A stretch of 64,000 nt of DNA from an uncultured Gammaproteobacteria bacterium (lineage in GTDB: Bacteria; Patescibacteriota; Microgenomatia; Daviesbacterales; UBA10151): contig CAZCNP010000004.1 of NCBI GenBank assembly GCA_964500725.1, forward strand, positions 12,139 to 76,138. The letters run 5' to 3'. The notes under the pieces were generated by a model, which saw only the letters and a list, made by a program, of their open reading frames with translations, was not told the origin of the DNA and made no database searches. Made by a program: the position numbers and the translations under genes. This document shows positions 1 through 29,061 of this stretch, one piece after another. Position 1 is the stretch's first letter, and each line of letters opens with the position of its first letter.

Positions 1-642
1 GCCCTACTTTCTTTTCTAAAAATTAAATGGGATTTAAACTTGATAAATAATTTAGCCTATGAAGCAGAAAGAGTTTTCCATGGCAACCCCTCTGGTGGAG
101 ATAACTCAACTGTTGTTTTCGGAGGATTAATTTGGTTTAGAAAAGAAGATCCAAGTTTGAAATTAATTCAACCTTTGCAACTTACTATTCCCACCCAGTT
201 AGCTAAAAATTTTGTCTTAATCAACACAGGAACTCCAAAAGAAACTACTTTAGAAATGGTAACCTTAGTAAAAAATCTTTATAAAAAAAGACCAAATCTA
301 GTTGAAAAGTTCCTGACAAATCAGGAAAGCCTGGTAAGACAATTGTTAAATGTTATTAAAGAATGTAATGAGAAAGAATTTATTAAAATTATTAAAGCTG
401 GTGAACAGAATTTAGAAAGTATTGGTGTAGTTTCTCCTCTAGTTAAACCAATTATTAGAAAAATAGAACAAGCTGGTGGAGCTGCTAAAATCTGTGGGGC
501 TGGAGGCAAAACTGGCCCAACAGGAATACTACTTGCATACCATCAAGACAAAAGTAAATTAGAAAATATAGCCAAATCCTTTAACCTTTCCTTTTTCAGC
601 ACTGCTTTAGGAGTAGAAGGCATTGACAAAATGTACATTTAA
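1..642 (+). CDS. GHMP kinase family protein, C-terminal part (phosphomevalonate kinase-like); 5' end lies outside the window
   Basis: The reading frame is open back to position 1. The C-terminal glycine-rich motif KICGAGGKTGPTG is typical of GHMP kinases. The gene sits immediately upstream of mvk and mvaD. Confidence 0.5.
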   Translation, partial: ALLSFLKIKWDLNLINNLAYEAERVFHGNPSGGDNSTVVFGGLIWFRKEDPSLKLIQPLQLTIPTQLAKNFVLINTGTPKETTLEMVTLVKNLYKKRPNLVEKFLTNQESLVRQLLNVIKECNEKEFIKIIKAGEQNLESIGVVSPLVKPIIRKIEQAGGAAKICGAGGKTGPTGILLAYHQDKSKLENIAKSFNLSFFSTALGVEGIDKMYI

Positions 643-657
643 ATATACAATTAAAAT

Positions 658-921
658 ATGCTGTACATTACTACTACGGAGCTTAGAACTAAATCAAAAA
701 AACTAGTAGAAACTCTCAAGGAAGGTCGTTCTGTAAATTTAGTTCACAGGTCCAAGGTGGTGGGTGAAATTAAACCTAAAATTTATGATCCAAAACCATT
801 TAATGCAAAGAGGGTTTTAAAAATCATTGATAAGCTTAATCTTCCCAAGCTTACTCCCAGACAAATAGAAGCAAGATACAGGGCAGCTATGATGAAAAAA
901 CATGGCAAGAGTCTTTCTTGA
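658..921 (+). CDS. type II antitoxin (Phd/VapB-like)
   Basis: An 87-aa protein whose stop overlaps the start of the downstream PIN toxin. This is the typical antitoxin-toxin arrangement. Confidence 0.55.
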   Translation: MLYITTTELRTKSKKLVETLKEGRSVNLVHRSKVVGEIKPKIYDPKPFNAKRVLKIIDKLNLPKLTPRQIEARYRAAMMKKHGKSLS

Positions 922-1264
922 TACCAATTTTTATATTGATATAACTAAAAGAGCCAAGGAGAAATGGAGCTCTTTAGGGAAAAATTTACTGTTTATATCC
1001 CCTCTATCCACTCATATTCTATTTTATGCCCGCAAGCTAAAAGTTCCTGATCAAGAAATAAATGAACTTCAAGAAGAGTTTGGTATGGTACCCTTCACAA
1101 AATATATCCTTGAGAAAGCTTTAGAAGGTCCAACTAACGATTTAGAAGATAACATCCAGCTTCACTCTGCAGCAGAGGCTGATTGTGATGTCTTTTTAAC
1201 TGCTGATGCTAAACTGCTAAAAATGAGATTCTTTGGCAAGACTGAAATTAAATCTACCCTGTAA
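902..1264 (+). CDS. vapC: PIN-domain toxin VapC
   Basis: The N-terminus reads ARVFLDTNFYID with the conserved acidic residues, and TADAKLL near the C-terminus. The protein is 120 aa. Confidence 0.7.
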   Translation: MARVFLDTNFYIDITKRAKEKWSSLGKNLLFISPLSTHILFYARKLKVPDQEINELQEEFGMVPFTKYILEKALEGPTNDLEDNIQLHSAAEADCDVFLTADAKLLKMRFFGKTEIKSTL

Positions 1265-1316
1265 AATTTGTAATAATTTGCGCTAAAAGTTATAATTACC
1301 CTCAATGCCCAACTAA

Positions 1317-1703
1317 ATGAATAGGATTGAAGCTTCTGTAGAAAGATTCAAAAGCATCGCCAGGCTTACTGCAAACTCGCTAGTAGAGCCTCTGAGAAGT
1401 TCTGTTGTTTTATTTCATCTCGCTGGTTTAAAGACAGCTACTTATCCTTGGGTTCTACCAATTTCTGCCTCAGCAATTAGTTTTGCATTAACAAAGAATA
1501 CTACTCTATCTTTAGCACTTGGTGGTGGAGTATATATAGCAGAAGGCTTTGCTATAACAGCAGCAAATGAAGCTATCTTCAATAGAGCATCTTGTAAAAC
1601 TGTACAAATGAGGCAAGGAGCAAAAACAATAAGCCCCGAAGAACTGGCCAAACTTCTCACAGATGATAGCAAACCTAATAATGAAACTTATGAAGATCCA
1701 TAA
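1317..1703 (+). CDS. hypothetical protein
   Basis: A 128-aa ORF in the gap before mvk with no recognisable motif. Confidence 0.3.
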   Translation: MNRIEASVERFKSIARLTANSLVEPLRSSVVLFHLAGLKTATYPWVLPISASAISFALTKNTTLSLALGGGVYIAEGFAITAANEAIFNRASCKTVQMRQGAKTISPEELAKLLTDDSKPNNETYEDP

Positions 1704-1748
1704 AAGCATGTCTTTACAATTATTCAAAAGAAGGTAAAATCTTATAAG

Positions 1749-2738
1749 ATGAACAAGGTTACAGTTTCAGCACCAGGAAAATTAATGCTTTTGGGAGAAC
1801 ATGCTGTTGTGTATGGACAGCCATGCCTGGTAACTGCTGTGGGACAAAGAATGAAAGCAACAGTAGAGCTAACTGAGGAGGCTACTTTTCAGCTTGAAGC
1901 TCCTGATGTTAAAATTGAAGGCTACAGCAAGCCTATGTCCCAATTAGCCCAGGGTGATATTCCCAAAGGAGCAAAATTTGTAGAAATTGCTGTTAAAAAT
2001 TTTTCTGAAAAACACCCAATTGAAGGTGGTGTAAAGGTTAACACAGTCTCTGAATTTTCTTCTCAATTTGGATTTGGCTCCTCCTCTGCTTCTACTGTTT
2101 GTGTTATTAAAGCTCTCTCAGAAATTACTGGAGCAAATCTAGATAACAAATCAATTTTTGAATTGGCTTTTAAAACTGTGATAGATATTCAAGGCAAAGG
2201 CTCTGGATTTGATGTAGCTGCAGCTACATATGGAGGAACTCTATATTTTGTCATAGGAGGAAAAGTAATAGAACCTCTTCATATTGGCTCACTTCCCTTA
2301 ATTGTAGGTTATACAGGCATTAAATTTGATACTGTAGCTTTGATAAATGAAGTAGCCAAAAAGGCAGTAAAGTATCCTGAAGTTATAGATAATATTTATC
2401 AACAAATAGGAAGGTTGGTAGAAAAAGCTAAACAAACAGTATTGAACAAAGATTGGGCTACTTTAGGAGAGCTCATGGACTTTAACGAAGGTTACCTTGC
2501 TTCCCTAGGAGTAGAAAGTAATAAACTGGCTGCCATGATTTATGGAGCCAGAGAGGCTGGAGCTTATGGGAGTAAACTATCTGGAGCAGGTATTGGAGAT
2601 TGTATGATTTCCCTAGCTTCAGAAGATAGAACCCAAGCTGTTAAAGATGGAATAACTGCTGCCGATGGCCAAGTAATTGATATTGAAGCCAATGTAGAAG
2701 GAGTAAGAATCGAACATGGCGTCAAAGGAATGATTTAA
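1749..2738 (+). CDS. mvk: mevalonate kinase
   Basis: The N-terminal motif APGKLMLLGEHAVVYG is the mevalonate kinase signature. It also carries the GHMP motif GFGSSSAS and the C-terminal SKLSGAGIGDC. Confidence 0.85.
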   Translation: MNKVTVSAPGKLMLLGEHAVVYGQPCLVTAVGQRMKATVELTEEATFQLEAPDVKIEGYSKPMSQLAQGDIPKGAKFVEIAVKNFSEKHPIEGGVKVNTVSEFSSQFGFGSSSASTVCVIKALSEITGANLDNKSIFELAFKTVIDIQGKGSGFDVAAATYGGTLYFVIGGKVIEPLHIGSLPLIVGYTGIKFDTVALINEVAKKAVKYPEVIDNIYQQIGRLVEKAKQTVLNKDWATLGELMDFNEGYLASLGVESNKLAAMIYGAREAGAYGSKLSGAGIGDCMISLASEDRTQAVKDGITAADGQVIDIEANVEGVRIEHGVKGMI

Positions 2739-3154
2739 GGTAGCGTTTTGATGCCTACTTTTTTGAAATCTGAATCCAAACTGATAATGGAATCTATATT
2801 AAACCTTTTCATTAAAACTATAGTGGTAGCATCTGTTAGAGACAATTTATGCTCTGCGAACTTTTCTAAAGTTTCAAAAGCTTCAGCTTGAACCTGTTCA
2901 TCGACCCAAAGTTGGACTAAATTATTTTTTGCGATGCTATCTTTTATTAGATTGATAAACTGCTCTGTTATTTTGATATTAGTATCATAAATAAATCTGG
3001 TGACTGTTTCATCTATGACATCGTTTGAGGTACAAATTACTACACCATCTTTAATAAATCGTTTGATTAGGTTCTTAATATTTATATGTCTGGGTTGATC
3101 TGATCCTAAATATGAAATCCATGCTGAAGTATCCACAAAAATCTTACTGGCCAT
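2735..3154 (-). CDS. vapC: PIN-domain toxin VapC
   Basis: The N-terminus reads KIFVDTSAWISY and there is a C-terminal SLDSDF motif. The protein is 139 aa. Confidence 0.8.
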   Translation of the reverse strand: MASKIFVDTSAWISYLGSDQPRHINIKNLIKRFIKDGVVICTSNDVIDETVTRFIYDTNIKITEQFINLIKDSIAKNNLVQLWVDEQVQAEAFETLEKFAEHKLSLTDATTIVLMKRFNIDSIISLDSDFKKVGIKTLP

Positions 3155-3157
3155 GAG

Positions 3158-3409
3158 TTAATCTTTTAAATAAATTTCATCAATATTTTCAGCAATATTT
3201 TTACCAAACTTCGCGAAACCAGCCATCTTTAATAAAGGATTATTCTTAGCTCTGGTTTTGGCAAGCGCTTTAAGTAATTTAGAATATTGATCAGAGACTC
3301 TCTCTACAACATCCCTGATTATTTGTGAGCGGGACATACCAAGTTCTTTGGCCAAATCAGCCAGGGTGGAAACTGTATTGGGTTTTAAGTAAATCTGATA
3401 TCTTTGCAT
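3158..3409 (-). CDS. ribbon-helix-helix (CopG/VapB-type) antitoxin
   Basis: An 83-aa protein immediately upstream of the PIN gene on the same strand. The N-terminus YQIYLKPNTVSTLADLAKELGMSRSQIIRDVV looks like an RHH fold. Confidence 0.55.
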   Translation of the reverse strand: MQRYQIYLKPNTVSTLADLAKELGMSRSQIIRDVVERVSDQYSKLLKALAKTRAKNNPLLKMAGFAKFGKNIAENIDEIYLKD

Positions 3410-3473
3410 ATATACACCATATCATGAGTGGTGTATATTGTCAAGAGCCATAAGTTGAGCTATCATTGATCAC

Positions 3474-4454
3474 ATGAAAGCAACAGCCATTGGACCATCA
3501 GATATAGCACTAACCAAATACTGGGGCAGAAAAGATGAGGTCTTAAGACTACCTGAGAATGGTTCTATTTCCATGGTTTTAAGCAATCTTTTAACCACCA
3601 CCACAGTAGAGTTTTCCCCAGAATATAAAAAAGACCAAATTACTATAAATGGTGGAGGCTTGGAAGAGGGAGAAGCAGAAAGGGTTATTAAACATTTGGA
3701 CAGAATCAGAAAAATAGCCAAAATTGACTTAAAAGCTAAAGTAGTTTCCAAAAACAACTTTCCTATTGGCACAGGCCTGTCTTCTTCTGCTTCTGGCTTT
3801 GCTGCTTTAACTGTAGCTGCAAGCAGCGCAGCAGGTTTAAATTTATCAGAAAAAGAGTTATCAATTCTTTCTAGACAGGCCTCTGGATCCTCTTGTCGGC
3901 CTATTGCTGGGGGTTTTGTAGAGTGGCTGGATGGAAATACTTCCAATACTTCTTATGCCAAAACAATATTCCCTAAAAACTGGTGGAATATTGCAGATGT
4001 TGTAGCTGTTGTTTCTGAAGGCAGAAAAGAAGTACCTACTTCCACAGGTCATGCAAAAGCTCAATCCTCTCCTTTTCTAAAACTTAGGTTATCCAGAATG
4101 AAAGAAAAAAATAGATTAGTTAAAAAATATATTAAAGAAAGGGACTTTAAAGCTTTGGGAGAGTTAATAGAACAAGAAGCTTTAGAGCTGCATACCATCA
4201 TGCTAACCCAATACCCTCCTTTAATTTATTGGACTCCTGGAACTTTAACTATTATGAAATTAGTCTCACACTGGAGAGCAGAAGGAATTCCAGTTTACTT
4301 TACTATCAATACTGGTCAAAATATTCATCTTTTAACAGAGCAAAAAAATGTAGAAAAAGTTAAAGACAAACTTAAAAAGTTAGATTTTGTCAAAAATATT
4401 ATAGTAAATACTGCAGGCGAAGGAACCAGACTTTCTAAAGAACATTTATTTTAA
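3474..4454 (+). CDS. mvaD: diphosphomevalonate decarboxylase
   Basis: The motif IALTKYWGRKD matches the mevalonate decarboxylase consensus (IALIKYWGKRD-type). It carries the GHMP motif GLSSSASGFAAL and is 326 aa. Confidence 0.85.
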   Translation: MKATAIGPSDIALTKYWGRKDEVLRLPENGSISMVLSNLLTTTTVEFSPEYKKDQITINGGGLEEGEAERVIKHLDRIRKIAKIDLKAKVVSKNNFPIGTGLSSSASGFAALTVAASSAAGLNLSEKELSILSRQASGSSCRPIAGGFVEWLDGNTSNTSYAKTIFPKNWWNIADVVAVVSEGRKEVPTSTGHAKAQSSPFLKLRLSRMKEKNRLVKKYIKERDFKALGELIEQEALELHTIMLTQYPPLIYWTPGTLTIMKLVSHWRAEGIPVYFTINTGQNIHLLTEQKNVEKVKDKLKKLDFVKNIIVNTAGEGTRLSKEHLF

Positions 4455-4459
4455 GGTTA

Positions 4460-4700
4460 ATCTATAAAGCTATCAACACTAGGGAATCTTATCCTGCTTA
4501 GTAAACTTGCTCTTTCTATAGGGTCAGGCACATTTAAGAGGACAGGCTGCTGATCACCTGTCCTGGTAGAACGGAGAACACTAGCTCCTGAAACTACCTC
4601 CACTGTAGGCTCCTCACGGGATACTACCGCTTGGTCGTCACGAACTATCCTAAACTGTCCTTCACCTAGACTTTCTGTGCGTATTCCCATAGGTGTAAGA
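4460..4700. ncRNA. candidate structured non-coding RNA (unclassified); GC-rich island in a convergent intergenic gap
   Basis: GC content is locally much higher than the flanking sequence. There is an 8-bp hairpin aggacagg/cctgtcct plus several smaller hairpins. The 5' end (cactagggaat) and the 3' end (attcccatag) can pair into a closing helix. Confidence 0.3.
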
Positions 4701-4732
4701 AATGTACCTATATCAGGAATACTAAATTCCGC

Positions 4733-5254
4733 TTATCTTGTCAATAACTCAGCTGCTTCTCGTGCCCAAGGAGTATAATTTTGGGGGTTTTTGGCAATAT
4801 CTGCTAAAAAATCTCCTCTTTTTATCCATTTATACTCATAGCCTATATTTTGATCCAAATTAACTCCTCCATCATACTCACCAACTATAAGGTAACAGTG
4901 CTCATTCTCGCAAAGCTTCCCATATTGGGCAAAATAATTAAATACTCCCACTCTTTTTAAATTCTCAACTTTATCAATTTCCCATTCTTCTTGCAAGCAT
5001 CTTAAAGTTGCCTCTTCTATAGTCTCATCTGAACTATCAGACTTATGCAGAGGATGGGTAGCAGCTGTTAAATCCCAAATATTATCAAATATTTTATGTT
5101 TTCTTTTTTGCAGCAGCACTTCTCCTTTAGAATTATACAGAAGCGCAGCGATTGCCAGATGACGCTGACCTTTCCCTGTATGCCCTTTTTCTTTAAGAAT
5201 ATATTCTAAAAACTTTCCATTATCATCACAAGCTAAAATTATTTGTTTATTCAT
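4733..5254 (-). CDS. idi: probable isopentenyl-diphosphate delta-isomerase (type 1, Nudix family)
   Basis: A Nudix-box-like segment ETIEEATLRCLQEEWEI is present, with a conserved His/Cys/Glu pattern. The gene is next to the mevalonate genes. Confidence 0.55.
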   Translation of the reverse strand: MNKQIILACDDNGKFLEYILKEKGHTGKGQRHLAIAALLYNSKGEVLLQKRKHKIFDNIWDLTAATHPLHKSDSSDETIEEATLRCLQEEWEIDKVENLKRVGVFNYFAQYGKLCENEHCYLIVGEYDGGVNLDQNIGYEYKWIKRGDFLADIAKNPQNYTPWAREAAELLTR

Positions 5255-8635: not shown

Positions 8636-9415
8636 TCACGGGTTTAATACTTTCAAAATCTGATCATGTATCAAACCGTTAGAGGTTACAATTTCCAATC
8701 TCTTTTTTGACCAATCAATTTCCTCTCCTTTGCCATCAGTTACCCTGCCTCCAGCCTCGGTTATAATTACAGCACCTGCTATACAATCCCAAATATTGGT
8801 ATCTGTGGCAAACCCATCCAATACTCCATTTCCTACCAAAGCAAATATTAAAGCATCACCGCCTAAAGAAACCGGATAGCGAATCTTATTTAAAAACGGC
8901 ATGATATAAGTTTGAGTTTTTTTCATTCTTTTGGCCATATGGGCAAAATCAACTCCCAATACTGAATCTGATAAATCAGCAGTTTTGCTAACTGCTGTTT
9001 TTTTGCCATTTAAATAAGCTCCCTGCCCTTCAAAAGAATAATACAGATTATCCATTAAAGCCTGGTAAACTACTCCCAAGATAGGTTTTTCATCCTTTAA
9101 AAGGCCAATGGAAACTGAGAAAGTAGGCAACCCTACTGAAAAGACTATTGTTCCATCCAAAGGATCAATTACCCAGGTATATTCTGAACCATTCTGGGTT
9201 TCCCCTGCTTCTTCAGAAATAATATTATGTTTAGGAAAATTATCTTTTAAAGTTTTTAAGATTATTTTTTCTGCATCTAAATCAGCTTGGGTGGCAAAGT
9301 TGCTTTTTTCTCCTTTGACAAAATATTTATGTTTTTTCCCGTAATAGCCTAAGATAACTTGCCCAGCTTTTTTGGCTGCCTGCTTAGCAACTTCTAAAAG
9401 TTTTGACTCATCCAT
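8636..9415 (-). CDS. inositol monophosphatase family protein (SuhB-like)
   Basis: The motifs WVIDPLDGT and WDCIAGAVII are typical of the inositol monophosphatase family. Confidence 0.8.
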   Translation of the reverse strand: MDESKLLEVAKQAAKKAGQVILGYYGKKHKYFVKGEKSNFATQADLDAEKIILKTLKDNFPKHNIISEEAGETQNGSEYTWVIDPLDGTIVFSVGLPTFSVSIGLLKDEKPILGVVYQALMDNLYYSFEGQGAYLNGKKTAVSKTADLSDSVLGVDFAHMAKRMKKTQTYIMPFLNKIRYPVSLGGDALIFALVGNGVLDGFATDTNIWDCIAGAVIITEAGGRVTDGKGEEIDWSKKRLEIVTSNGLIHDQILKVLNP

Positions 9416-10073
9416 TTAGCAATTGTATCACCTCTTGATCTGTTACAGGCTCAAATTGATGGTAAAACTGACCTACAGCTTGGAAATATGCTGGTGCTTC
9501 CAATACCACTACCTGCTCAACCTCATCTTCAACTTTTTCTAAAGCGCTCTGACTTGCTATTGGCACAGCCAGTATGACTCTTGCCTGATGTCTTTTTAAG
9601 TATTCTATTGCAACTTGGGTTGTTGCTCCTGTGGCCATTCCATCATCTACTAAAATAATTGTTTTACCCCGAATATCTAGCAGCTTTTTACCTTGTCTAT
9701 ACAGCTTTTCTCTTCTGCTTATCTCTTGCCTTTCTTCCTCAATTTTTTCTTTTAAATCCTCTGCATCTAATTGCAGCGCTGAGAGTAGTTCCTCATCCCA
9801 AACTGCTTGTCCCTCAGAATCTAAAGCGCCTAATGCTAACTCAGGCTGTGTGGAAGCACCTATTTTCCTGGTGACAATAATATCCAAAGGTAGTTTGAGG
9901 ATTTTTGCTACCTCAGAGGCAACCACCACCCCACCTCTAGGAATCCCCAAGATAATATCAGCTTTAATAGCTTTTAATTTATTGGCCAGCAGCTTACCAG
10001 CAGACTGCCTATTTCTAAAAAGCTTCATTTCAGTCAAATAACCCCAACTGAGGCGCCTCTTTTTGTTCTTCAA
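9408..10073 (-). CDS. phosphoribosyltransferase (type I PRTase fold)
   Basis: The PRPP-binding motif ILVDDGMATGATT is present. Confidence 0.7.
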   Translation of the reverse strand: MKNKKRRLSWGYLTEMKLFRNRQSAGKLLANKLKAIKADIILGIPRGGVVVASEVAKILKLPLDIIVTRKIGASTQPELALGALDSEGQAVWDEELLSALQLDAEDLKEKIEEERQEISRREKLYRQGKKLLDIRGKTIILVDDGMATGATTQVAIEYLKRHQARVILAVPIASQSALEKVEDEVEQVVVLEAPAYFQAVGQFYHQFEPVTDQEVIQLLNG

Positions 10074-11328
10074 TCTTAGAACTGCCCTCAGCCCCCCAGA
10101 TTTTTACCACCCCATATACTCCATCATACCCTGGGTCAATTACCAAATCCCCTATTCTCACTTTACTAATTCCTTCTGCTATTTTATCCCCAGATACCTT
10201 GGCAATTTCCCTAATATCAACCTTTGTTAAAATCTTTATCTCGCTTCCTAAAATATTTGTTAACTTTTTATATTCATTTAAGACCTTTTGGGTTGTTGGA
10301 GCAGTTTGGTAAGCTTCTGCAATAATTTGTAAAAGCGGTACTAACATCCTATACCCTGCCTTCTGAGGAAAAGCTAAACTTTTGATAACCCCTTCCTTAT
10401 TTTCAATTTGTAAATCTTCATTTGACCTGCCAGCCAAAGCTTCTACCCTTTCCATTACCCCAACGGTTAATCCTCTGCCGCAAACAGGACACTTAGTTCC
10501 TTTGATTTTGGTATCTTCTGGCGAGTATTTCACATTACAACTTCTATGGCCAGTATAGTGATACTTACCCTCCTCTGGATAGAATTCGATAGTTCCAACT
10601 ATTTCCTGCTTTCTAATGGCCTGAAAGAGCCCTGAATACCCTAGGGAAACATCTTCTCCTATGACTGTTGATTCCCTACCCAAATTGGGCAAAGAATGAG
10701 CGTCTGAACAGGAAATAACTGACCTGCTGTCAAGCTCTTTTATCCTCCAATTCATTGCAGGGTCCGAGCTTAAACCAGTTTCTACTGCATAAATATAGGG
10801 AGTTAAATCCTCAAAAGCATCCTGTAAACTATCATATCCAGATTGGGAACCAAAAATCCCAAACCAGGGAGTCCAAGCATGCGAACAAATAAATAAAGCT
10901 TGCTCATCTATCTCTAAACACATCCGCAGTAAATCTTTAGAGGAAATCCCAACAATTGGCCTACCATCTGATGAAAGATTAGCCCGTTTGGCAAGAAGAG
11001 CTTGCTGCAGCTTAGCAGCAGATTCAAATGAAGGAAGAAATATTAAATTATGAACTCTTCTTACTGCCCCTTTATGGGAATAAATAGAAGAAACCTCTAC
11101 TGTTAAGACAAACTTAACATCTGAGGAATTATGAGTGAGAAATCCAGATCCATCTTCTTTTAACTGGCTTTTAAGTTCAGCAAACCATAAAGGGTGCAAA
11201 AAATCACCTGTGCCTAAAACATCAATTCCTTTTAGTTTGGCCCACTGCACCAAATTAGGCACATTTAATTGTTGGGAGCAGGCCCTACTAAACCTGGAAT
11301 GGATATGTAAATCTGCAATATATGCCAT
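10030..11328 (-). CDS. PHP-domain nuclease, EndoQ-like (TIGR00375-type)
   Basis: The N-terminal PHP motif ADLHIHSRFSRACS is followed by VLGTGDFLHPLW. There is an internal zinc-finger-like CPVCG. The protein is 432 aa. Confidence 0.6.
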   Translation of the reverse strand: MAYIADLHIHSRFSRACSQQLNVPNLVQWAKLKGIDVLGTGDFLHPLWFAELKSQLKEDGSGFLTHNSSDVKFVLTVEVSSIYSHKGAVRRVHNLIFLPSFESAAKLQQALLAKRANLSSDGRPIVGISSKDLLRMCLEIDEQALFICSHAWTPWFGIFGSQSGYDSLQDAFEDLTPYIYAVETGLSSDPAMNWRIKELDSRSVISCSDAHSLPNLGRESTVIGEDVSLGYSGLFQAIRKQEIVGTIEFYPEEGKYHYTGHRSCNVKYSPEDTKIKGTKCPVCGRGLTVGVMERVEALAGRSNEDLQIENKEGVIKSLAFPQKAGYRMLVPLLQIIAEAYQTAPTTQKVLNEYKKLTNILGSEIKILTKVDIREIAKVSGDKIAEGISKVRIGDLVIDPGYDGVYGVVKIWGAEGSSKIEEQKEAPQLGLFD

Positions 11329-11596: not shown

Positions 11597-13330
11597 TTAT
11601 TTTTTACCCTGAGTCTGATACATCTCTATTAGCTCTTTTACAGAAGTTGCATCTTCAACTTTTTTATCCTCTCCCCTAAATTTAACTAGCCTGGGAAATC
11701 TTAAAGCATAGCCTGGTTCTGTGCCTTGCTTGCCAGCAGTATGAACTGGAGATCTGGTAATCTCATCAGCCAACACTTCAATCACAATTTCTGGGCTAAT
11801 CCAAACAGATGGGATTAAAATAGAATTAACCCTGGCTGGTTTTTGATCTACTTTAATCTTGTCTGCTCTTTTGTGAATTTCCCTCCATTCCTCATCTGTT
11901 AAACCAGTGCCAATTTTAGAAACTGTCACAAACTCATCTTTATTTTTGTCATATACCCCTACCAGTAGCGCTCCTGCCCCAAATTCAACCCTCTTTCCTC
12001 TGCCAAAAATATACCCCAAAATCACACAATCAATAGTATCTTTTAACTCACCTGCAGAATGCCTTTTTAATTTTACCCAGTTAAAATTTCTGGCTCCTGC
12101 TTCATATTTAGAATCAGGGCGTTTGACTACCAATCCTTCTAAACCCTTAGAAATAGCATCATCTAACATTGTTTGCAGTTTGTCTGCCTTATCTATCATC
12201 TCTCCCCTCTCTACTAGCAAAGTGTCTCCACTTCCAACAGTCTTTTCTAAAATTTCTAACCTGTCTTTAAGCTCTAAATCAATTAAAGATTTACCATCTT
12301 TATATAAAATATCAAAACAAAAAGCCTTTAAAGGAATTTTTTTGGCCATCTCATCAATTTCATATTTTCTTCTTCTTTGAGTAGTTTCCTGGAAGGGCAA
12401 AAATTCATCTGAGGTTGGGTTAAAACCAATTGCCTCAGAGTCTAAAATAGCTGTTTTTGCCTTAATTTGTTTTTTAGCCCCTTCCACTATTTCAGGAAAC
12501 ATTGGAGTAGTCTCTTCTAAGTTTCTGGAAAAAAGTCTGACATTAGCTCCATCTTTGTGCACCTGAACGCGAAATCCATCTAACTTCCGTTGAGCATTTA
12601 CCACTCCTAGCTTCTCAATAACTTTTTCAGTAGTAGGCAATCTTTCAGCCAGCTGTGATCTAATTGGCCTGCCTACTGTTACATCTAATTTCTCAATTCC
12701 TTCCAGTCCCTTACTCCATAAAGTTTCTCCAATTAACCCCAAATCAGAAGTTTTATTATATGCCCCCTCAAGTAATTTCCTTTTGCTTTTATCTCCTAAT
12801 TTAAGCTTGGCAAAAGCATCCAAAATAGTTGGATCACCAATCCCAAGTCTTGATACTCCCAAAGGAATTCTCACTAAGTGCTTGGCTCCTACTGATTCCA
12901 CTTTTGAAAGCAACTCAGACAGTGTGGAAACCTTTTTTTCAACAGTCCCTTCCCCTGTCATCTTGGCAATATTTCTCAATGTTTCAAATACTTCATTTAC
13001 TGATAAATCACTTTTACTTTTTCCCTTGGATTTTTTACTTAATCTTAAGGCTACCAGCCCAAGATCACCTACCATACCATACTCTTTTAACACTTCTTCC
13101 CTGTCAATTTCATAAGCTCTAGCAATTGAAGCAGCCACCAACTTTTCACTCATCCCAATTTCTAAAGGTTCAAAAAAAGGCCCAACTCTGCCTTGAATCA
13201 AGTAAGAAACATGTCCAATCTCATTAAATTCCACTTGGGAGAAAAGCTCAGTTAAAATATCAATTAAGGCAAGCCTTGAGGAGGTTTCTTCCAGATGTTC
13301 AAAATACTGGGAAAGCTTAGAAAACAGCAT
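11597..13330 (-). CDS. lig: ATP-dependent DNA ligase
   Basis: The adenylation motif I KLDGFR appears in the context QRKLDGFRVQVHKDGANVRLFSRNLEE. The protein is 577 aa. Confidence 0.85.
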   Translation of the reverse strand: MLFSKLSQYFEHLEETSSRLALIDILTELFSQVEFNEIGHVSYLIQGRVGPFFEPLEIGMSEKLVAASIARAYEIDREEVLKEYGMVGDLGLVALRLSKKSKGKSKSDLSVNEVFETLRNIAKMTGEGTVEKKVSTLSELLSKVESVGAKHLVRIPLGVSRLGIGDPTILDAFAKLKLGDKSKRKLLEGAYNKTSDLGLIGETLWSKGLEGIEKLDVTVGRPIRSQLAERLPTTEKVIEKLGVVNAQRKLDGFRVQVHKDGANVRLFSRNLEETTPMFPEIVEGAKKQIKAKTAILDSEAIGFNPTSDEFLPFQETTQRRRKYEIDEMAKKIPLKAFCFDILYKDGKSLIDLELKDRLEILEKTVGSGDTLLVERGEMIDKADKLQTMLDDAISKGLEGLVVKRPDSKYEAGARNFNWVKLKRHSAGELKDTIDCVILGYIFGRGKRVEFGAGALLVGVYDKNKDEFVTVSKIGTGLTDEEWREIHKRADKIKVDQKPARVNSILIPSVWISPEIVIEVLADEITRSPVHTAGKQGTEPGYALRFPRLVKFRGEDKKVEDATSVKELIEMYQTQGKK

Positions 13331-13376: not shown

Positions 13377-13901
13377 ATGAGTTATCCTGAAATAATGCCA
13401 AACCTTTCTCCTGAGCAATCACCAATGCCAGAACAAAAAAACCCAAGAGAAACAGAATTAGAAGATCAATTACTGGCTATGTTCTATGATCTTATGGGAC
13501 CAAAAAGTCGTAATAAACCAGGTGCAATGGATATAATCCGCAGAAAGATACACCCATTTATAGCAGAACAAATCAGAAAAGAGAATGAATTAAAAACAGC
13601 AGCTACAGCAACTGGTCAAGCAGCTTTAACATCCATTACTGAAGAGTTAAGAGCACCTTTATCCCATTTTGTAGCATTTGCAGAGTTTGTACACTATGAT
13701 CCCAAAAAAGCAGTAAAGGTTGCAGAAGAATTTATTGGCGATGCGACAAAAAAATCTCTAAAAATAGTTGAAAGGTATGAGGAAGCTATAGCCTCAGGCG
13801 ATATTCGCCCTTCACCTCATGCTTTCCAACCTGGCACTACTGTTTTATCAGTTCATCCCTATTCCCAAGCTCAGGTAGATAAATCTGGCAATCCTACTTA
13901 A
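13377..13901 (+). CDS. hypothetical protein
   Basis: A 174-aa ORF with coding-like composition and no recognisable motif. Confidence 0.35.
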   Translation: MSYPEIMPNLSPEQSPMPEQKNPRETELEDQLLAMFYDLMGPKSRNKPGAMDIIRRKIHPFIAEQIRKENELKTAATATGQAALTSITEELRAPLSHFVAFAEFVHYDPKKAVKVAEEFIGDATKKSLKIVERYEEAIASGDIRPSPHAFQPGTTVLSVHPYSQAQVDKSGNPT

Positions 13902-15009
13902 GAACATATGCTGCCTTTTTAGTGCCACCACTCTTTTTCACCAAACCTTTTTGCCTTAAAAATTTTAGCTCCCTTAAAACTGTATCATCTGAATAATCTG
14001 GAAAGATTTTTCTAAACTCTTTATTTGATAAAGATTTATGCCTGTGAATGTATTCCATAATCATCATTTGTCTTTCGTTTAACATTAGCTGCTCGCCTAA
14101 TTTATCTTTAATTCTGGCATCTACAGAGATTCTTTGAACTTTTTCCTTAACCCTGCTTAATTCTATAGCCACCCCTTCTGTAAAATACTCCAGCCAGGGA
14201 GTTAAATCACGCTCATGAGTATCTAGCACCAGCTGGTTTGAAACAGCTTGTAGAGTCAAGTAATAATCCATTGGGTTTTCATCAAAGTATTCCTCAAACG
14301 AAAAGAATTTTCTGATATCATATCTATCTAAAAATAAAATTAATGTAGCCACAGCTCTGGCTACTCTACCATTTCCATCTACAAAAGGATGAATTCTAGC
14401 TAGTTCATAATGGATAATCCCAGCTTTGATAATTGGGTGAATTTGCTTCCCTTCATCTGAATTGATCCAATTAACTAAATCCTCTACCAAATATGGCACC
14501 TCTACTGCAGGAGGAGGTGTGTATGAAACCTGGCCAGTTTTGGTATTTTTAATTACCACCTGTCTTAACCTAAATTGCCCACAAGATTGTTCTGGCAAAA
14601 TCTTATCTGTGGTGAGTTTGTGCATTTCCAAAACGGTTTCTATAGTAAAACTGTAAGCACCTGATCCGCCAACCGCTGGACCAATTTGGGTTTGGACAGC
14701 ATCTATAAACTTTAAAACATTTCTGTAATTGATAACTTCCTGAACATCCCTGTCTCTGGCTATTACTTCCTGACCATCCAATACATCTTTAACTTCTTCA
14801 GGAGTTAAAGGGTTCCCCTCTAAATGAGTGCCATGATGGATAGTTCTTTCGATTGCTTCTTTTCTAAATTTAGCTTCCCAAGCAGGCACCAAAGGAGCAT
14901 TCATAATAATTTCTCTGGCAGCCTCAACTACACCAATGTCTTTTAATATTTTGTTAGTGATTGTATATTTGGGGACGAACATACCCTTATCTTCCCATAT
15001 TTCCCGCAA
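13894..15009 (-). CDS. Fic family protein (probable AMPylase) with a C-terminal winged-helix domain
   Basis: The canonical Fic motif HPFVDGNGRVARA is present. A candidate inhibitory-helix segment GTHLEGN lies upstream in the same protein, which would make it class II-like. Confidence 0.85.
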   Translation of the reverse strand: MREIWEDKGMFVPKYTITNKILKDIGVVEAAREIIMNAPLVPAWEAKFRKEAIERTIHHGTHLEGNPLTPEEVKDVLDGQEVIARDRDVQEVINYRNVLKFIDAVQTQIGPAVGGSGAYSFTIETVLEMHKLTTDKILPEQSCGQFRLRQVVIKNTKTGQVSYTPPPAVEVPYLVEDLVNWINSDEGKQIHPIIKAGIIHYELARIHPFVDGNGRVARAVATLILFLDRYDIRKFFSFEEYFDENPMDYYLTLQAVSNQLVLDTHERDLTPWLEYFTEGVAIELSRVKEKVQRISVDARIKDKLGEQLMLNERQMMIMEYIHRHKSLSNKEFRKIFPDYSDDTVLRELKFLRQKGLVKKSGGTKKAAYVLK

Positions 15010-21980: not shown

Positions 21981-22244
21981 TTACGGTGATAATATACCCT
22001 TTTTAATATACTGTTTAATTAAAGACTGGTAGGGTATATTGATTTCATTAGCCTTCTCTTTAATCCTATTTAAAAGATATTCTGGGATCCTAATTGAAAT
22101 AGACCTAGTAGTTGGTTTTAAATTAGGAAAACTAACCCTTTCAAAATCAGAAGGTTCAAAATATTCAGAGAGATCTAATTTCCACCAGAACTCCCGTTCT
22201 TCATCCTCATTCTTAAATTTTGGTATCTTAAGCTGTTTCTTCAT
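21981..22244 (-). CDS. brnA: BrnA-type antitoxin
   Basis: The segment EDEEREFWWKLDLSEYFE and a C-terminal RHH-like region match the BrnA family. The gene is adjacent to a BrnT-like ORF. Confidence 0.65.
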   Translation of the reverse strand: MKKQLKIPKFKNEDEEREFWWKLDLSEYFEPSDFERVSFPNLKPTTRSISIRIPEYLLNRIKEKANEINIPYQSLIKQYIKKGILSP

Positions 22245-22422
22245 AATTCAACACCTCCTTTTTGTTAATATCTCTTACTGAAATTATCCTAATTTTCTTT
22301 CTTCTATAGGTAAACACTATGTAAAGTAATCTACCCTTCTTAGTCTTACCTAATATAATAAATCTTTCTTCATCTTTAGAATGAAATACGTCTTTATAGA
22401 TAACTTTTAAACAGACGCACAC
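22228..22422 (-). CDS. brnT: BrnT-like (DUF497) toxin, apparently N-terminally truncated (GTG start)
   Basis: The segment DEERFIILGKTKKGRLLYIVFTYRRKKIRIISVRDINKKE matches the conserved C-terminal two-thirds of BrnT. An in-frame stop lies immediately upstream of the start. Confidence 0.55.
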   Translation of the reverse strand: MCVCLKVIYKDVFHSKDEERFIILGKTKKGRLLYIVFTYRRKKIRIISVRDINKKEVLNYEETA

Positions 22423-22670: not shown

Positions 22671-23015
22671 CTAAGTATATTCCTGAATTATTTTTTCAAT
22701 CTGTTGCTTGAGTACTGGTAAATCTTCTTTAATTGTCTTCCAAAGTATATCTAAATCAACTCCAAAATATTCATGTATTATCTTATTCCTCATACTAACC
22801 ATCTTGCCCCAGGGGATATCAGAGTATTTTTCTGCAGCTTCTTCAGGTATATTTCTGGCAGCCTCGCCCAGAATTTCTAGATTTCTTACAACAGCATCTA
22901 TTGTTTTCCAATCATTCTCCAAATCATTTAAAGAGAAATCTTTTGTGTAATCTTCAATTCTTAAAATAGAAGTTAGAATATCCTGTAGATAAAGAGTCAG
23001 CTCTCTTTTAGACAT
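22671..23015 (-). CDS. hepT: HepT (DUF86) RNase toxin
   Basis: The R(x4)HxY motif appears as RNKIIHEY. The protein is 114 aa and lies downstream of an MntA-type nucleotidyltransferase gene. Confidence 0.8.
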   Translation of the reverse strand: MSKRELTLYLQDILTSILRIEDYTKDFSLNDLENDWKTIDAVVRNLEILGEAARNIPEEAAEKYSDIPWGKMVSMRNKIIHEYFGVDLDILWKTIKEDLPVLKQQIEKIIQEYT

Positions 23016-23298
23016 AAATTACTTCTTGTAGGATTTCATTCTTAATGGCTGGTTTTAATGCCTTTTTGGTAACTAAATCAACTTTTTTACCAATTAATTT
23101 ACCTAAAAATTCTTCCAGTTCAATAAATTTAAAAAATCCTAAGGGTTTTGAGAATTCAACTAAAATATCAACATCACTTCCTTTTTTCTCTTCTCCTCTG
23201 CTGACAGAACCAAAGACGCCAATACTTTCTACACCATATTTGTTCCTTAAGGTGCTCATATTTTTATCAATTATGCTTGTAATTTGTTTTATCTGCAT
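23008..23298 (-). CDS. mntA: MntA-type nucleotidyltransferase antitoxin
   Basis: The minimal nucleotidyltransferase motif GSVSRGEEKKGSDVDILV is present. The likely start is the internal MQIKQ, because the longer ORF would overlap the pyrC start. Confidence 0.8.
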   Translation of the reverse strand: MQIKQITSIIDKNMSTLRNKYGVESIGVFGSVSRGEEKKGSDVDILVEFSKPLGFFKFIELEEFLGKLIGKKVDLVTKKALKPAIKNEILQEVIYV

Positions 23299-23305
23299 AG
23301 AAATA

Positions 23306-24680: not shown

Positions 24681-24902
24681 TTATCTTAAAGCTCTCATAA
24701 AATCTTCCAGACTAATGTTGGCTTTTTTAATTTGAGCTTTTAAAAGAAATTGGGCTACTTCTTTATGAAGTGGAATGGACAAAGAAGGAGCATTTTGTTT
24801 TTGCAAAATAGCATGATCTCCAGAAGTATGAACATGAATATAGCCAAACTTTAAGAATGCTTTGACAGCATTTTTCCCAGAAATATTTGCGAGTTTAGGC
24901 AT
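24681..24902 (-). CDS. hicA: HicA-family mRNA interferase toxin
   Basis: A 73-aa protein with the context FGYIHVHTSGDHAIL, which is HicA/YcfA-like. It lies downstream of a HicB-like gene. Confidence 0.65.
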   Translation of the reverse strand: MPKLANISGKNAVKAFLKFGYIHVHTSGDHAILQKQNAPSLSIPLHKEVAQFLLKAQIKKANISLEDFMRALR

Positions 24903-25137
24903 TGAATACAGGAACTAAAGTATCTATAGATCTTTTAGCAAACTCTGAACCCTTTTCTTTTTTCAAATTCATTGCTTCCATATAGGCTCTAATTGCTTTT
25001 TCAACATTTTCTAATGCTTCTTTCTTAGTTTTCCCTTGAGACATACAACCATATAAATTCACCACATCAGCTACATAGCCTTTATATGTTTTATCATAAG
25101 TTAATTTAATTAAGAAGTCTAGTTTATCCTTTTGCAT
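24895..25137 (-). CDS. hicB: HicB-family antitoxin
   Basis: An 80-aa protein overlapping hicA by 8 nt. Its profile matches the HicB/UPF0150 fold. Confidence 0.6.
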   Translation of the reverse strand: MQKDKLDFLIKLTYDKTYKGYVADVVNLYGCMSQGKTKKEALENVEKAIRAYMEAMNLKKEKGSEFAKRSIDTLVPVFNA

Positions 25138-28811: not shown

Positions 28812-29061
28812 GAGTATACAAAGTTATAGGAGATATATCTTCGCTCGCAGGTCTTGATTTTTGTGCCACTAATTTTTTGGCATAAGCTACAGCAGCATGT
28901 ATTTGCTCAGGAGCTAAATGAGGGTAATCTGCTAAAATCTCCTTTTCGCTCATTCCAGCGGACATTCTATCCAATATCAACTCAACAGAGATTCGCGTAC
29001 CTGCAACGATAGGTTTACCGCCTAAAATTTTTGGATCAGAGATAATCTGTGGTTTCCTCAT
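28795..29061 (-). CDS. DUF433-like putative antitoxin
   Basis: An 88-aa protein with DUF433-like PQIISDPKILGGKPIVAGTRISV, overlapping the downstream partner gene. Confidence 0.55.
   Translation of the reverse strand: MRKPQIISDPKILGGKPIVAGTRISVELILDRMSAGMSEKEILADYPHLAPEQIHAAVAYAKKLVAQKSRPASEDISPITLYTHEISR

Follow-up and report, generated by a model that had tools for sequence, protein, structure and literature searches.

The first 5,254 nucleotides of the 64-kb stretch of DNA analyzed here (the window), which comes from a Candidatus Daviesbacteria genome, make up the second half of a gene cluster for isoprenoid precursors (mevalonate pathway) that is conserved in Microgenomates; three of the four pathway enzymes encoded there deviate from the textbook catalytic residues, which deserves testing. 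The joint explanation preferred here, held with slightly better than even confidence, is that of the two GHMP kinases the first (K1) acts as mevalonate kinase (MVK) and the second (K2) as phosphomevalonate kinase (PMK), that the decarboxylase (MDD) works on mevalonate diphosphate (DMD), that the terminal Nudix protein is an IPP isomerase (IDI) devoid of the usual Cys, and that the toxin-antitoxin (TA) cassettes found between these genes are selfish insertions. Established are the genes present, their families, the residues at the sites discussed, the synteny and that one cassette is mobile, whereas all enzymatic activities, the roles of K1 and K2 and the neutrality of the cassettes are inferred.

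According to this scheme, mevalonate would be phosphorylated by K1 (positions 1–642) and mevalonate 5-phosphate by K2 (1749–2738), a paralogue derived from MVK that lacks the Mg-binding Glu. MDD (3474–4454) would convert mevalonate diphosphate to IPP notwithstanding the presence of Asn at the usual catalytic Asp, and the Cys-less IDI-like protein (4733–5254) would interconvert IPP and DMAPP by means of a base other than Cys67, for which the covarying Asp61 is a candidate. The product may then be used by the prenyl synthases of the cluster and lead to the undecaprenyl carrier.

The full cluster comprises, in this order, UppS and a trans-prenyl synthase (divergent), HMGR, HMGS, an archaeal-type thiolase (AACT), DUF35, K1, K2, MDD and the convergent IDI-like gene. 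An identical architecture occurs in 57 related loci of the K2 type, and the arrangement in the window is constant across 13 contigs from several samples. All of the open reading frames listed in the original prediction are present at their coordinates, and family models, synteny in the 57 loci and the literature bear out the prediction that a CPR bacterium, here of the Microgenomates, carries a mevalonate-pathway cluster in this region. The Microgenomates cluster has already been described (Hoshino and Gaucher, 2018, Mol Biol Evol; PMC6107057) and, with inserted TA cassettes, is in itself ordinary. It shares with the present one archaeal-type AACT, HMGS, HMGR-I, two GHMP kinases of the MVK/PMVK class, DPMD and IDI-I homologues and synteny with a cis-prenyl synthase, IPK being found in some genomes only; the strain of the window differs in having TA cassettes within the operon. 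Two broader statements of the prediction do not hold. The route is not archaeal in type, as its lower part is of the bacterial/eukaryotic kind (two GHMP kinases, a decarboxylase and a type-1 IDI-like protein) and the archaeal-like portion is confined to the upstream thiolase, HMGS and DUF35 genes outside the window, in agreement with the published account; also, the pathway is typical of Microgenomates and not of CPR bacteria generally (PMC6107057). Added here to that picture are the alternative K2 and IPK modules, the lack of the MVK Mg-binding Glu in K2, the Asn at the catalytic Asp of K2-linked decarboxylases and the absence of Cys67 from the Daviesbacteria "IDI-I".

The window opens within K1 (1..642, plus strand) and contains the 3' two-thirds (C-terminal 213 codons) of this MVK-family GHMP kinase of 313 amino acids, whose full-length protein (P0121) is 100% identical to the fragment. 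K1 was not recognizable as the PMK it had been taken for: it passes the MVK equivalog model TIGR00549 (183.5 bits, cutoff 163), is below the cutoffs of two PMK models (72 and 55 bits) and retains Lys9, His16, Glu123 (equivalent to rat E193) and Asp134. K2 (1749..2738, plus strand), an MVK-family GHMP kinase of 329 amino acids that carries SAPGKLMLLGEHAVVYG, likewise exceeds the TIGR00549 cutoff (209 bits) and scores below those of the PMK models (85 and 86 bits); its best match in the PDB is M. mazei MVK (149 bits). Neither kinase fits the known GHMP PMK families (TIGR01220, NF040957, TIGR01219). The Mg-coordinating Glu of MVKs (rat E193, Leishmania major E144; PMC1851959) is kept by K1 in 100% of 66 homologues whereas in K2 it is replaced by V144, with Val in 97% of 57 homologues. 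K2 retains the GEH histidine, reader of the C3 centre of mevalonate, which fits a mevalonate-derived substrate. K2 and IPK are mutually alternative in 62 of 63 clusters, K1 being the kinase common to both types. For instance, in the clusters termed type B (L031 and L047) the upstream half is identical and is followed by K1-MDD-IPK, and K2 does not occur within 10 kb (related loci were viewed over about 20 kb each, and these genomes could carry a K2-like MVK elsewhere); the same order occurs in L078, L079, and L086. For such a set to provide every step of an MVK/PMD/IPK route, K1 has to be the MVK. On the basis of these sister clusters and of the missing Mg-binding Glu, a feature of K2 alone, the roles of MVK for K1 and PMK for K2 are the more likely ones. 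The earlier naming of 1749–2738 as MVK agrees with the family model, but the comparative evidence suggests PMK.

MDD (3474..4454, plus strand) is a mevalonate (di)phosphate decarboxylase homologue of 326 amino acids with MVD-like_N and MDD_C domains that scores 263 bits with TIGR01240 (cutoff 171). Compared with classical DMDs it has Asn279 instead of the catalytic Asp and His193 instead of Met; Asn at the former position is found in 54 of the 58 K2-linked homologues, including that of the window. Against a functional enzyme, P. torridus MBD became inactive when its catalytic Asp was changed to Asn; in favour of one, S. solfataricus DMD D281N is still active (PMC9254496). Judging from the residues and family relationships, MDD most likely acts as a DMD despite Asn279. 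R19 and H193 occupy both sites mutated in 6N0Z. Among solved structures, MDD is most closely related to a phosphomevalonate decarboxylase (PMD), and its His193 is PMD-like, both of which point away from a DMD.

If similarity were the only criterion, the MVK would be K2, which is probably also what Hoshino and Gaucher imply, and the classical assignment (1749–2738 as MVK and the truncated 1–642 as a divergent PMK, the rest as in the preferred explanation) is possible, though the odds are against it. It would account for the higher scores of K2 on both MVK models (209 and 245 vs. 183 and 142 bits), for the match of solved archaeal MVKs to K2 at 149 bits and to K1 at 78–88 bits and for the greater divergence of K1, as expected of a gene with a newly acquired function; in addition, the literature places the CPR MVK with archaeal MVK. 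However, K1, too, scores above the cutoff of the MVK equivalog and below those of the PMK models, it has the Mg-binding Glu that K2 has lost, and it is the sole kinase of otherwise complete MDD plus IPK clusters. With the classical MVK, PMK, DMD, and IDI pathway of eukaryotes, Gram-positive bacteria and Sulfolobales the window has in common two GHMP kinases, one GHMP decarboxylase, an isomerase and no IPK; it differs in the lack of a kinase from the known PMK families and of the isomerase Cys. A haloarchaeal/Chloroflexi-type route that bypasses the PMK step, in which MDD would be a PMD making isopentenyl phosphate and an IPK encoded elsewhere, or K2 as a GHMP-type IPK, would make IPP, is improbable. 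Anaerolinea thermophila PMD (PDB 6N0X) is the best solved match of MDD (293 bits vs. 226 for the best DMD), His193 is shared with this enzyme and with all 9 IPK-linked homologues, the K1-MDD-IPK set of this route is exactly that carried by sister Microgenomates clusters, and the alternation of K2 and IPK is also compatible with K2 having replaced IPK. Nevertheless, the window cluster has K2 in place of IPK, with no IPK in the 64 kb or within 10 kb in the 57 K2-type loci, and the score with the PMD model NF040704 (196 bits) is far under its cutoff of 475. Moreover, the K2-linked MDDs form a derived, Asn-bearing clade apart from the IPK-linked ones. Within this clade His is no longer strictly kept (Q 39, H 13, M 8 among the homologues of all loci), and at the other specificity site, which is Asn in Anaerolinea PMD and was engineered to Lys in 6N0Z, the residue is basic (K or R) throughout. 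K2 also keeps the His for the C3 centre of mevalonate, a centre absent from isopentenyl phosphate.

The last gene (4733..5254, minus strand) encodes an IDI-like Nudix protein of 173 amino acids. IDI families are its best matches, although it scores below both curated cutoffs (NF002995, 68.9 vs. 127 bits; TIGR02150, 59.4 vs. 105.8 bits) and reaches about one third of the score of the canonical IDIs of sister lineages (up to 220 bits). Its structure model (pLDDT 94.5) has E. coli IDI as best match (TM 0.80, rmsd 2.4 Å). The type-1 enzyme of E. coli (PDB 1HX3/1NFS) and the window protein share the ligands His25, His32, His69, Glu114, and Glu116 as well as Tyr104, Trp161, and Glu87 (E. coli numbering); H25, H32, H67, E116, E118, Y107, and W163 are the conserved residues of the latter, and this set of metal ligands, Glu, Tyr, and Trp is complete and invariant among homologues. 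The differences are an invariant Asp at position 63, a 5-residue insertion after His69 and, above all, the replacement of Cys67 by Ala65 in the window protein and by Ser, Ile, or Thr in relatives. Type-1 IDIs are generally held to require Cys67, and no Cys-less IDI is known to have been characterized. Of the two catalytic residues, Cys and Glu, by which the original prediction would tell an IPP isomerase from a generic Nudix hydrolase, the Glu is retained and the Cys is missing. Of 97 sequences without Cys67, 92 have an acidic residue at position 63, and of 61 sequences with it, 59 have a non-acidic one there; these are raw counts without correction for shared ancestry and may go back to one early divergence.

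It is doubtful that the Nudix protein has a role other than isomerization (e.g., as a hydrolase of prenyl or other diphosphates, or as a binding or regulatory protein), with DMAPP supplied by another enzyme. The catalytic Cys is absent from all 120 of its closest homologues, both IDI cutoffs are missed by a protein whose canonical counterparts in sister lineages score well above them, and IDI-like Nudix proteins with hydrolase activity exist, such as the NCBIfam family Nud_hyd_Meth, which presumably originates from an IPP/DMAPP hydrolase of Methanosarcina mazei. This family, however, gives only 21.6 bits with the window protein, whose Nudix hydrolase box has just one conserved Glu and whose full IDI site is invariant. 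In addition, the canonical and Cys-less forms (8 and 30 loci, respectively) occupy the same cluster slots and never co-occur, and no other IDI candidate is present within the window; a type-2 IDI or an IPK could be encoded elsewhere in the genome, beyond these 64 kb.

The K1-K2 and K2-MDD junctions of the window, of 1106 and 735 nt, are filled by two PIN-type TA cassettes and an orphan ORF. The original description of two VapBC-type pairs set between pathway genes applies fully to the second pair; the first is interposed and PIN-type as well, but its toxin is sub-threshold for PIN and its antitoxin falls outside all described families. In both a small antitoxin gene lies directly upstream of the PIN-domain gene and overlaps or abuts it, as in VapBC type II systems, and presence differs between genomes. 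PIN1 (902..1264, plus strand), a VapC-like putative toxin of 120 amino acids, is under the Pfam gathering scores (PIN, 21.7 vs. 23.6 bits; PIN_3, 21.8 bits), although many homologues bear precomputed PF13470 or PF01850 assignments and the structures matched by its AlphaFold model (pLDDT 76.5) are nearly all of VapC/PIN type (TM 0.58–0.66); it is a short PIN with three (D7, D83, D102), not four, invariant acidic residues. Its putative antitoxin partner AT1 (658..921, plus strand; 87 amino acids), which overlaps PIN1 by 20 nt and always accompanies it in other genomes, has no match in Pfam, NCBIfam or PDB, and its N-terminus gave no significant alignment to Phd/YefM antitoxins (hhalign, 1.7% probability). 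A putative orphan ORF of 128 amino acids (1317..1703, plus strand) without family match or homologue follows in a variable cassette, whose flanks (71 and 37 nt) are ~90% identical to those of locus L006 and whose interior is unrelated. PIN2 (2735..3154, minus strand; 139 amino acids; Pfam PIN, 52.6 bits), a predicted VapC-type toxin whose stop codon overlaps that of K2, is preceded at 3 nt by RHH2 (3158..3409, minus strand; 83 amino acids), a ribbon-helix-helix antitoxin of VapB/CopG type (Pfam RHH_1, 26 bits, above 20.5). Orthologous PIN2 cassettes (78–83% identity) lie at this junction also in L013 and L005, RHH2 being 84% identical to its L013 counterpart. The 64-nt divergent intergenic region that follows (3410..3473) contains promoter-like hexamers in both directions (3444–3416, minus; 3438–3466, plus), which are consensus matches only and not enriched over shuffled sequences. 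Another putative orphan ORF (4457..4690, minus strand; 77 amino acids), downstream of the IDI-like gene, is predicted by gene callers in contigs of the same strain and has neither a family match nor a homologue in related loci.

TA proteins are more similar between genomes (77–84%) than the flanking enzymes (60–78%), and the occurrence of the AT1/PIN1 cassette in unrelated contexts in other genomes indicates that it is mobile and contradicts its strict linkage to mevalonate clusters. The window encodes at least 11 TA pairs, with at least 9 Pfam-supported pairs in the 58.7 kb outside this region; at this high density about 0.8–0.9 pairs are expected per 5.25 kb, so that the two observed are close to chance (Poisson P about 0.2) and the cluster is not enriched. 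TA presence varies between lineages but is not strictly strain-specific, a possibility raised originally, since the same cassettes recur at the same junctions in a few other Daviesbacteria (L004, L018, L019, and L021; L005 and L013). This recurrence at the same two junctions, the stability of the arrangement in the 13 contigs and the unusual conservation of PIN1 (73–84% over 120 clusters) would be expected if the cassettes were functionally tied to the operon, for instance by stabilizing the cluster as addiction modules or by regulating isoprenoid synthesis in response to stress. Such a tie is nevertheless very improbable: most related clusters have no TA genes at these junctions, a given junction holds different TA types or families in different genomes, one cassette is located in unrelated contexts elsewhere and the local TA density equals the background. 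The cassettes would rather be mobile bystanders outside the pathway, presumably neutral.

Of 62 related loci, 30 have overlapping K1 and K2 genes and a further 12 have them at most 100 nt apart; K2 and MDD overlap in 32 of 57. Under the preferred explanation, the TA cassettes and orphan ORFs would be selfish mobile elements inserted into junctions that in about half of the relatives are overlaps of a few bases. Their main effect would be to break translational coupling, and each downstream gene would consequently depend on its own promoter or on read-through.

The ORFs named in the original prediction for this distal mevalonate cluster were all recovered. They comprise a partial GHMP kinase (K1, 1–642, plus strand), a second GHMP kinase (K2, 1749–2738, plus strand), a decarboxylase homolog with the domains MVD-like_N and MDD_C (MDD, 3474–4454, plus strand), a Nudix protein that matches IPP isomerase families best (the IDI-like protein, 4733–5254, minus strand) and two toxin-antitoxin (TA) pairs (658–1264 and 2735–3409). 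The K1 stretch covers the 213 C-terminal codons of a GHMP kinase of 313 aa, whose full-length form from Candidatus Daviesbacteria (P0121) is 100% identical. The names borne by identical proteins assign the window to a genome of Candidatus Daviesbacteria (Microgenomates, CPR). The proteins of the window were mapped onto 70 related loci taken from species-representative genomes, with about 20 kb seen per locus, and the order K1-K2-MDD is kept in 57 of them. Upstream in the closest relative (L006), the opposite strand encodes an undecaprenyl-diphosphate synthase and a trans-prenyl synthase, after which come HMG-CoA reductase (HMGR), HMG-CoA synthase, thiolase and a DUF35/OB-fold protein; on a contig of the same strain as the window the DUF35 gene lies directly 5' of K1.

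Neither the cluster nor the TA insertions are new in kind, and both are ordinary in themselves. A CPR mevalonate cluster of this type is described by Hoshino and Gaucher (2018; PMC6107057), who find it frequent in Microgenomates and seldom present in Parcubacteria. The original prediction had called the arrangement an archaeal-type route typical of CPR bacteria; it is a mevalonate cluster of CPR, but the label "archaeal-type" fits only in part, the lower half present in the window being of the bacterial/eukaryotic type. The archaeal anhydromevalonate-phosphate pathway includes a phosphomevalonate dehydratase, a UbiD-type decarboxylase and isopentenyl phosphate kinase (IPK) instead of enzymes of the diphosphomevalonate decarboxylase (DMD) family, and this cluster uses a DMD-family decarboxylase. 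No IPK, canonical IDI or IDI-2 was detected among the window ORFs checked, using window-wide tblastn with IPK and canonical IDI as queries and a Pfam scan that left out about 20 large ORFs. Thus the observation was confirmed while its interpretation was supported in part. Automatic annotation names both kinases "mevalonate kinase" and the IDI-like gene only "NUDIX domain-containing protein", a warning that pathway steps are mislabeled in these genomes. A literature search for work linking Patescibacteria, IDI and the mevalonate pathway returned no paper.

By profile, both kinases are mevalonate kinases (MVK) and neither is a phosphomevalonate kinase (PMK). Full-length K1 (P0121) and K2 score 183.5 and 209.1 bits, respectively, on the MVK equivalog TIGR00549 (cutoff 163.05). 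On the GHMP-type PMK models K1 reaches 72.4 bits with TIGR01220 (cutoff 165.7) and 55.4 bits with NF040957 (cutoff 500), and K2 attains 85.3 and 85.9 bits with the same models and 26.2 bits with TIGR01219 (cutoff 377). Pathway logic would be the sole basis for a PMK role of either kinase. The catalytic set of MVKs consists of a Lys, the His of the GEH motif, a Ser, a Mg-binding Glu (rat E193) and an Asp (rat D204). K1 possesses the whole set (K9, H16, S90/S91, E123, and D134), conserved in 88–100% of 66 homologs, and K2 departs from it at the Glu only, with Val (V144) in 97% of 57 homologs and the Lys, His, Ser and Asp kept. This Glu is the Mg2+ ligand of MVKs (Glu193 in rat, Glu144 in L. major; PMC1851959), and it occurs in all the solved MVKs aligned and in 100% of the 66 K1 homologs (E123). 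K1 and K2 alike retain the Lys and Asp, as well as the GEH histidine, which reads the mevalonate C3 center.

The gene content of other clusters also bears on the assignment. In two related loci (L031, 8369–11117, and L047) the upstream half is identical and is followed by K1-MDD-IPK without K2; L047 (10001–11914) encodes K1 and MDD as a single fused protein of 637 aa, and the IPK-linked MDD homolog of L031 lies at 9337–10314. The IPK of these loci scores 192 bits on NF040647, above its cutoff, and three loci from a metagenome scan (L078, L079, and L086) show the K1-MDD-IPK order as well. No IPK was found near the 57 K2-type clusters within the approximately 20 kb seen per locus, and a single locus (L085, 1951–5537) contains IPK-K1-K2-MDD. 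Together with AACT, HMGS, and HMGR, the set K1, MDD and IPK makes a complete route of the Chloroflexi/haloarchaeal type only if K1 is the MVK, in which case K2 and IPK would be alternative modules. On account of these clusters without K2 and of the Glu pattern, K1 is probably the MVK and K2 a PMK derived from an MVK. The reverse assignment made in the original prediction (K2 as MVK and K1 as PMK) is possible but rather doubtful: K2 is globally closer to the solved archaeal MVKs (149 bits vs. 78–88 bits for K1), but K1 is the sole kinase of the K1-MDD-IPK clusters and has the Mg-binding Glu where K2 has Val. Both proteins are GHMP kinases as claimed, but the PMK identity of K1 was not supported, as K1 passes the MVK cutoff and fails the PMK models. 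Two further loci (L076 and L080) carry MDD-IPK pairs with no adjoining kinase.

The decarboxylase passes the DMD equivalog TIGR01240 (263.3 bits vs. a cutoff of 171.35) and fails the phosphomevalonate decarboxylase (PMD) model NF040704 (MvaD; 195.9 bits vs. a cutoff of 475), and the IPK partner is missing from the ORFs checked. Its closest solved relative is the PMD of Anaerolinea thermophila (6N0X, 293 bits), the best true DMD reaching 226 bits. The catalytic Asp of the reference enzymes (S. solfataricus D281, Anaerolinea PMD D280), which lies in the motif T-x-D-A-G-P, is replaced in the window by Asn279 (FTINTGQN vs. YTLDAGPN). Asn occupies this position in 54 of 58 K2-linked homologs, that of the window included, and the Asp is kept by every IPK-linked homolog. 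A functional DMD with Asn279 is plausible but not assured by analogy with characterized enzymes, because the D281N variant of S. solfataricus DMD retains DMD activity (with D281T or D281V the enzyme becomes a 3-kinase) whereas D309N abolishes the activity of the P. torridus bisphosphate decarboxylase (Aoki et al., PMC9254496). Two substitutions, Asn to Lys and His to Met, distinguish the engineered Anaerolinea PMD 6N0Z from the wild-type enzyme; at these sites MDD has Arg19, which is basic and DMD-like, and His193, which is PMD-like. In 59 of 60 homologs from the related loci the first site carries K or R; the second site is Gln in 39, His in 13 and Met in 8, and it is His in 9 of 9 IPK-linked homologs and in the Anaerolinea PMD.

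The IDI-like protein (173 aa) conserves the E. coli IDI residues His25, His32, His69, Glu114, Glu116, Tyr104, Trp161, and Glu87. The metal ligands (His25/His32/His69/Glu114), Glu116, Tyr104 and Trp161 are invariant or nearly so in its 120 closest homologs. The catalytic Cys67 is replaced by Ala65, and the best PDB sequence matches of the protein are entries of the C67A mutant. This position is occupied by Ala in 100 and Ser in 20 of the 120 closest homologs, and by Cys in none; it is A, S, I, or T in all of the closest 25 or so representatives (50% clustering level) drawn from a library of 1.8 billion proteins, in which proteins with the canonical W-[ST]-N-x-C-C-x-H-P appear at lower scores only. 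The catalytic Cys and Glu, proposed to distinguish an IDI from a generic Nudix hydrolase, gave a mixed outcome, since the Glu is present and the Cys absent. The curated IDI models NF002995 and TIGR02150 give 68.9 bits (cutoff 127) and 59.4 bits (cutoff 105.8); they give 219.6 and 155.1 bits for the canonical IDI of one related locus (L053) and 220 and 155 bits for those of Levybacteria clusters.

Whether this protein acts as an isomerase was weighed on its fold, its Nudix box and its genomic distribution. The best match of its predicted model (pLDDT 94.5) is E. coli IDI (1HX3; TM 0.80, 2.4 Å). A non-isomerase role is a serious rival, with the missing Cys and the failed IDI models on its side. 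As for a hydrolase, the Nudix pyrophosphohydrolase box is GX5EX7REUXEEXGU with catalytic glutamates, and the window protein reads E77-x7-R85-C-L-Q-E-E-W-E-I, which departs from it; across the family a single box Glu, equivalent to E. coli E87, is conserved, unlike the Glu that follows the Arg and the first of the EE pair, and this argues against hydrolase activity. The canonical and the Cys-less forms occur in 8 and 30 loci, respectively, none having both, and the two forms take up the same positions in the cluster, following MDD or preceding HMGR. In raw counts that ignore kinship, residue 63 (E. coli numbering; Asp61 in the window) is acidic in 92 of 97 sequences lacking Cys67 and non-acidic in 59 of 61 sequences with it. 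On balance, the reading of the IDI-like protein as the isomerase of the cluster, using a different base, is the one we lean toward, with moderate confidence.

Another Nudix gene, of about 165 aa, lies between K2 and MDD in at least nine Microgenomates clusters (L024, 11990–12487; L058, 11906–12406; L066, 11886–12386; L067, L068, L011, L030, L035, and L004). Its hydrolase box (RE.xEE.GI) is nearly canonical, and among NCBIfam models it matches IDI and YfcD best, in both cases with a score under the cutoff. In L003 (11934–13442) it is fused to MDD in one 502-aa protein matching Nudix and DMD models, and the same slot of L007 (12501–14003) holds a 500-aa ORF that matches MDD plus, at its 5' end, the IDI/Nudix query. 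The slot is occupied in the window by the second TA cassette.

That the TA pairs are wedged between biosynthetic genes was borne out. K1 and K2 overlap in 30 of 62 related loci and are at most 100 nt apart in 12 more, and K2 and MDD overlap in 32 of 57; in the window the corresponding gaps measure 1106 and 735 nt, so the cassettes sit within a normally tightly coupled operon. The pair in the second gap (minus strand) consists of the antitoxin gene RHH2 (3158–3409; RHH_1, 26 bits) and the toxin gene PIN2 (2735–3154; PIN, 52.6 bits), both above Pfam thresholds. The antitoxin gene is immediately upstream of the PIN toxin gene with a 3-nt gap, as expected of a predicted VapBC module. The pair in the first gap (plus strand) is formed by AT1 (658–921), a putative antitoxin of 87 aa without a family match, and PIN1 (902–1264), which scores about 21.7 bits on PIN and PIN_3, just below the Pfam threshold. 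The AlphaFold model of PIN1 (120 aa, pLDDT 76.5) matched almost only VapC/PIN structures and many of its 629 homologs have a precomputed PIN annotation, so that a PIN-fold putative toxin with a small upstream partner in a two-gene unit would also correspond to VapBC. Profile searches of the PDB with PIN1 and AT1 gave nothing significant, nor did hhalign reach significance when AT1 was compared with Phd and PIN1 with other PINs, these comparisons being too shallow. Sequence conservation in the PIN1 family is unusually high for a toxin and exceeds that of the neighboring pathway enzymes, the top 120 clusters at the 90% level (P0391–P0510) being 73–84% identical.

AT1/PIN1 behaves as a mobile cassette, as other genomes carry the unit (87 aa plus 120–122 aa, the two genes overlapping by 20 nt) in three unrelated contexts. 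It is present at the same junction in L004, L018, L019, and L021, and the PIN2/RHH2 cassette is also found in L005 and L013. Synteny had been proposed as a means to see whether the pairs are strain-specific insertions: their presence does vary between genomes, but the cassettes recur in several other loci. A different PIN pair occupies the same or neighboring junctions on the other strand in L004, L006, and L021, and pairs resembling Phd/RelE, RelE-like, and BrnT/BrnA modules, assigned by eye, occur in L005, L010, and L028. In the closest relative, L006, that other PIN pair is accompanied by a remnant of AT1, and the K2-MDD junction is free of insertions, which points to fast TA turnover. Between genomes the TA proteins are 77–84% identical vs. 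60–78% for the flanking enzymes. A search for direct or inverted repeats or element ends flanking the cassettes gave only short, chance-level matches. Promoter-like hexamers precede AT1, the orphan ORF of the first gap, K2 (site at 1713–1740), RHH2, and MDD (site at 3438–3466), although promoter and terminator counts are not enriched over shuffles and these sites are suggestive only.

Other features of the region were also noted. The spacer 1265–1748 and its counterpart in L006 (10198–10755) are about 90% identical over the first 71 and last 37 nt and differ in the interior; their ORFs (128 aa in the window, 164 aa in L006) both start with MNRIE and are otherwise unrelated. The spacer looks like a replaceable cassette between conserved ends. 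Fragment copies of the K2 and MDD 3' ends lie among TA cassettes in L010 (10451–11120), about 3.6 kb downstream of the intact MDD, which suggests recombination tied to cassette turnover. A putative 77-aa ORF (4457–4690, minus strand) is situated between the convergent genes for MDD and the IDI-like protein, where the GC content is locally higher; both it and the 128-aa ORF were rejected as conserved genes, no homologs having been found.

At least nine further Pfam-supported TA pairs occur elsewhere in the window, of the families BrnT/CopG, HepT/MNT, HicAB, DUF5615/DUF433, PIN/MazE, MazF, PIN/Phd (two pairs) and YafQ-like (21981–22422, 22671–23358, 24681–25137, 28464–29061, 36824–37517, 47921–48492, 49521–50238, 50327–50968, and 59549–60114). 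TA genes make up about a quarter of the 83 called ORFs, the two pairs of the mevalonate region included. With such numbers, two pairs in 5.25 kb (expected 0.8–0.9, P ~0.2) are close to the background rate, and an enrichment in the cluster was rejected. The window also encodes, on the minus strand, an ATP-dependent DNA ligase of the archaeal/eukaryotic type (11597–13330), a class I fructose-bisphosphate aldolase (29068–30078), a Fic/DOC protein (13894–15009), a tRNA-Ile with anticodon TAT (61701–61774, ARAGORN) and a third tRNA (57700–57772) detected with Rfam and absent from the ARAGORN list.

The functions predicted computationally for K2, MDD and the IDI-like protein can be joined in a tentative reading that we consider rather unlikely as a whole. 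The lower mevalonate pathway of Microgenomates would run on enzymes each of which breaks a textbook catalytic rule: a PMK recruited from an MVK paralog that lost the Mg-binding Glu, a diphosphomevalonate decarboxylase operating with Asn in place of the catalytic Asp, and a type-1 IPP isomerase operating without the catalytic Cys, whose base may be the Asp that covaries at position 63 (E. coli numbering). The coexistence in one lineage of K1-MDD(Asp)-IPK, IPK-K1-K2-MDD, and K1-K2-MDD(Asn) could then represent living intermediates of the transition from PMD/IPK to PMK/DMD proposed on theoretical grounds by Aoki et al. (2022; PMC9254496).

The interest of the region lies in the non-canonical residues of these three proteins and in the K2/IPK alternation, not in the TA cassettes, and it is these features that make the proposed transition between pathway variants directly testable. 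No other route to the undecaprenyl carrier, which the cell wall requires, is obvious in Microgenomates, and yet the decarboxylase and the isomerase candidate each lack a residue considered catalytic and the PMK is not recognizable as such. If the enzymes are active, they would define a type-1 IDI mechanism that does not depend on Cys and a DMD that naturally carries Asn, and they would also supply natural intermediates with which to test how the PMD/IPK and PMK/DMD routes interconvert in the evolution of isoprenoid biosynthesis.
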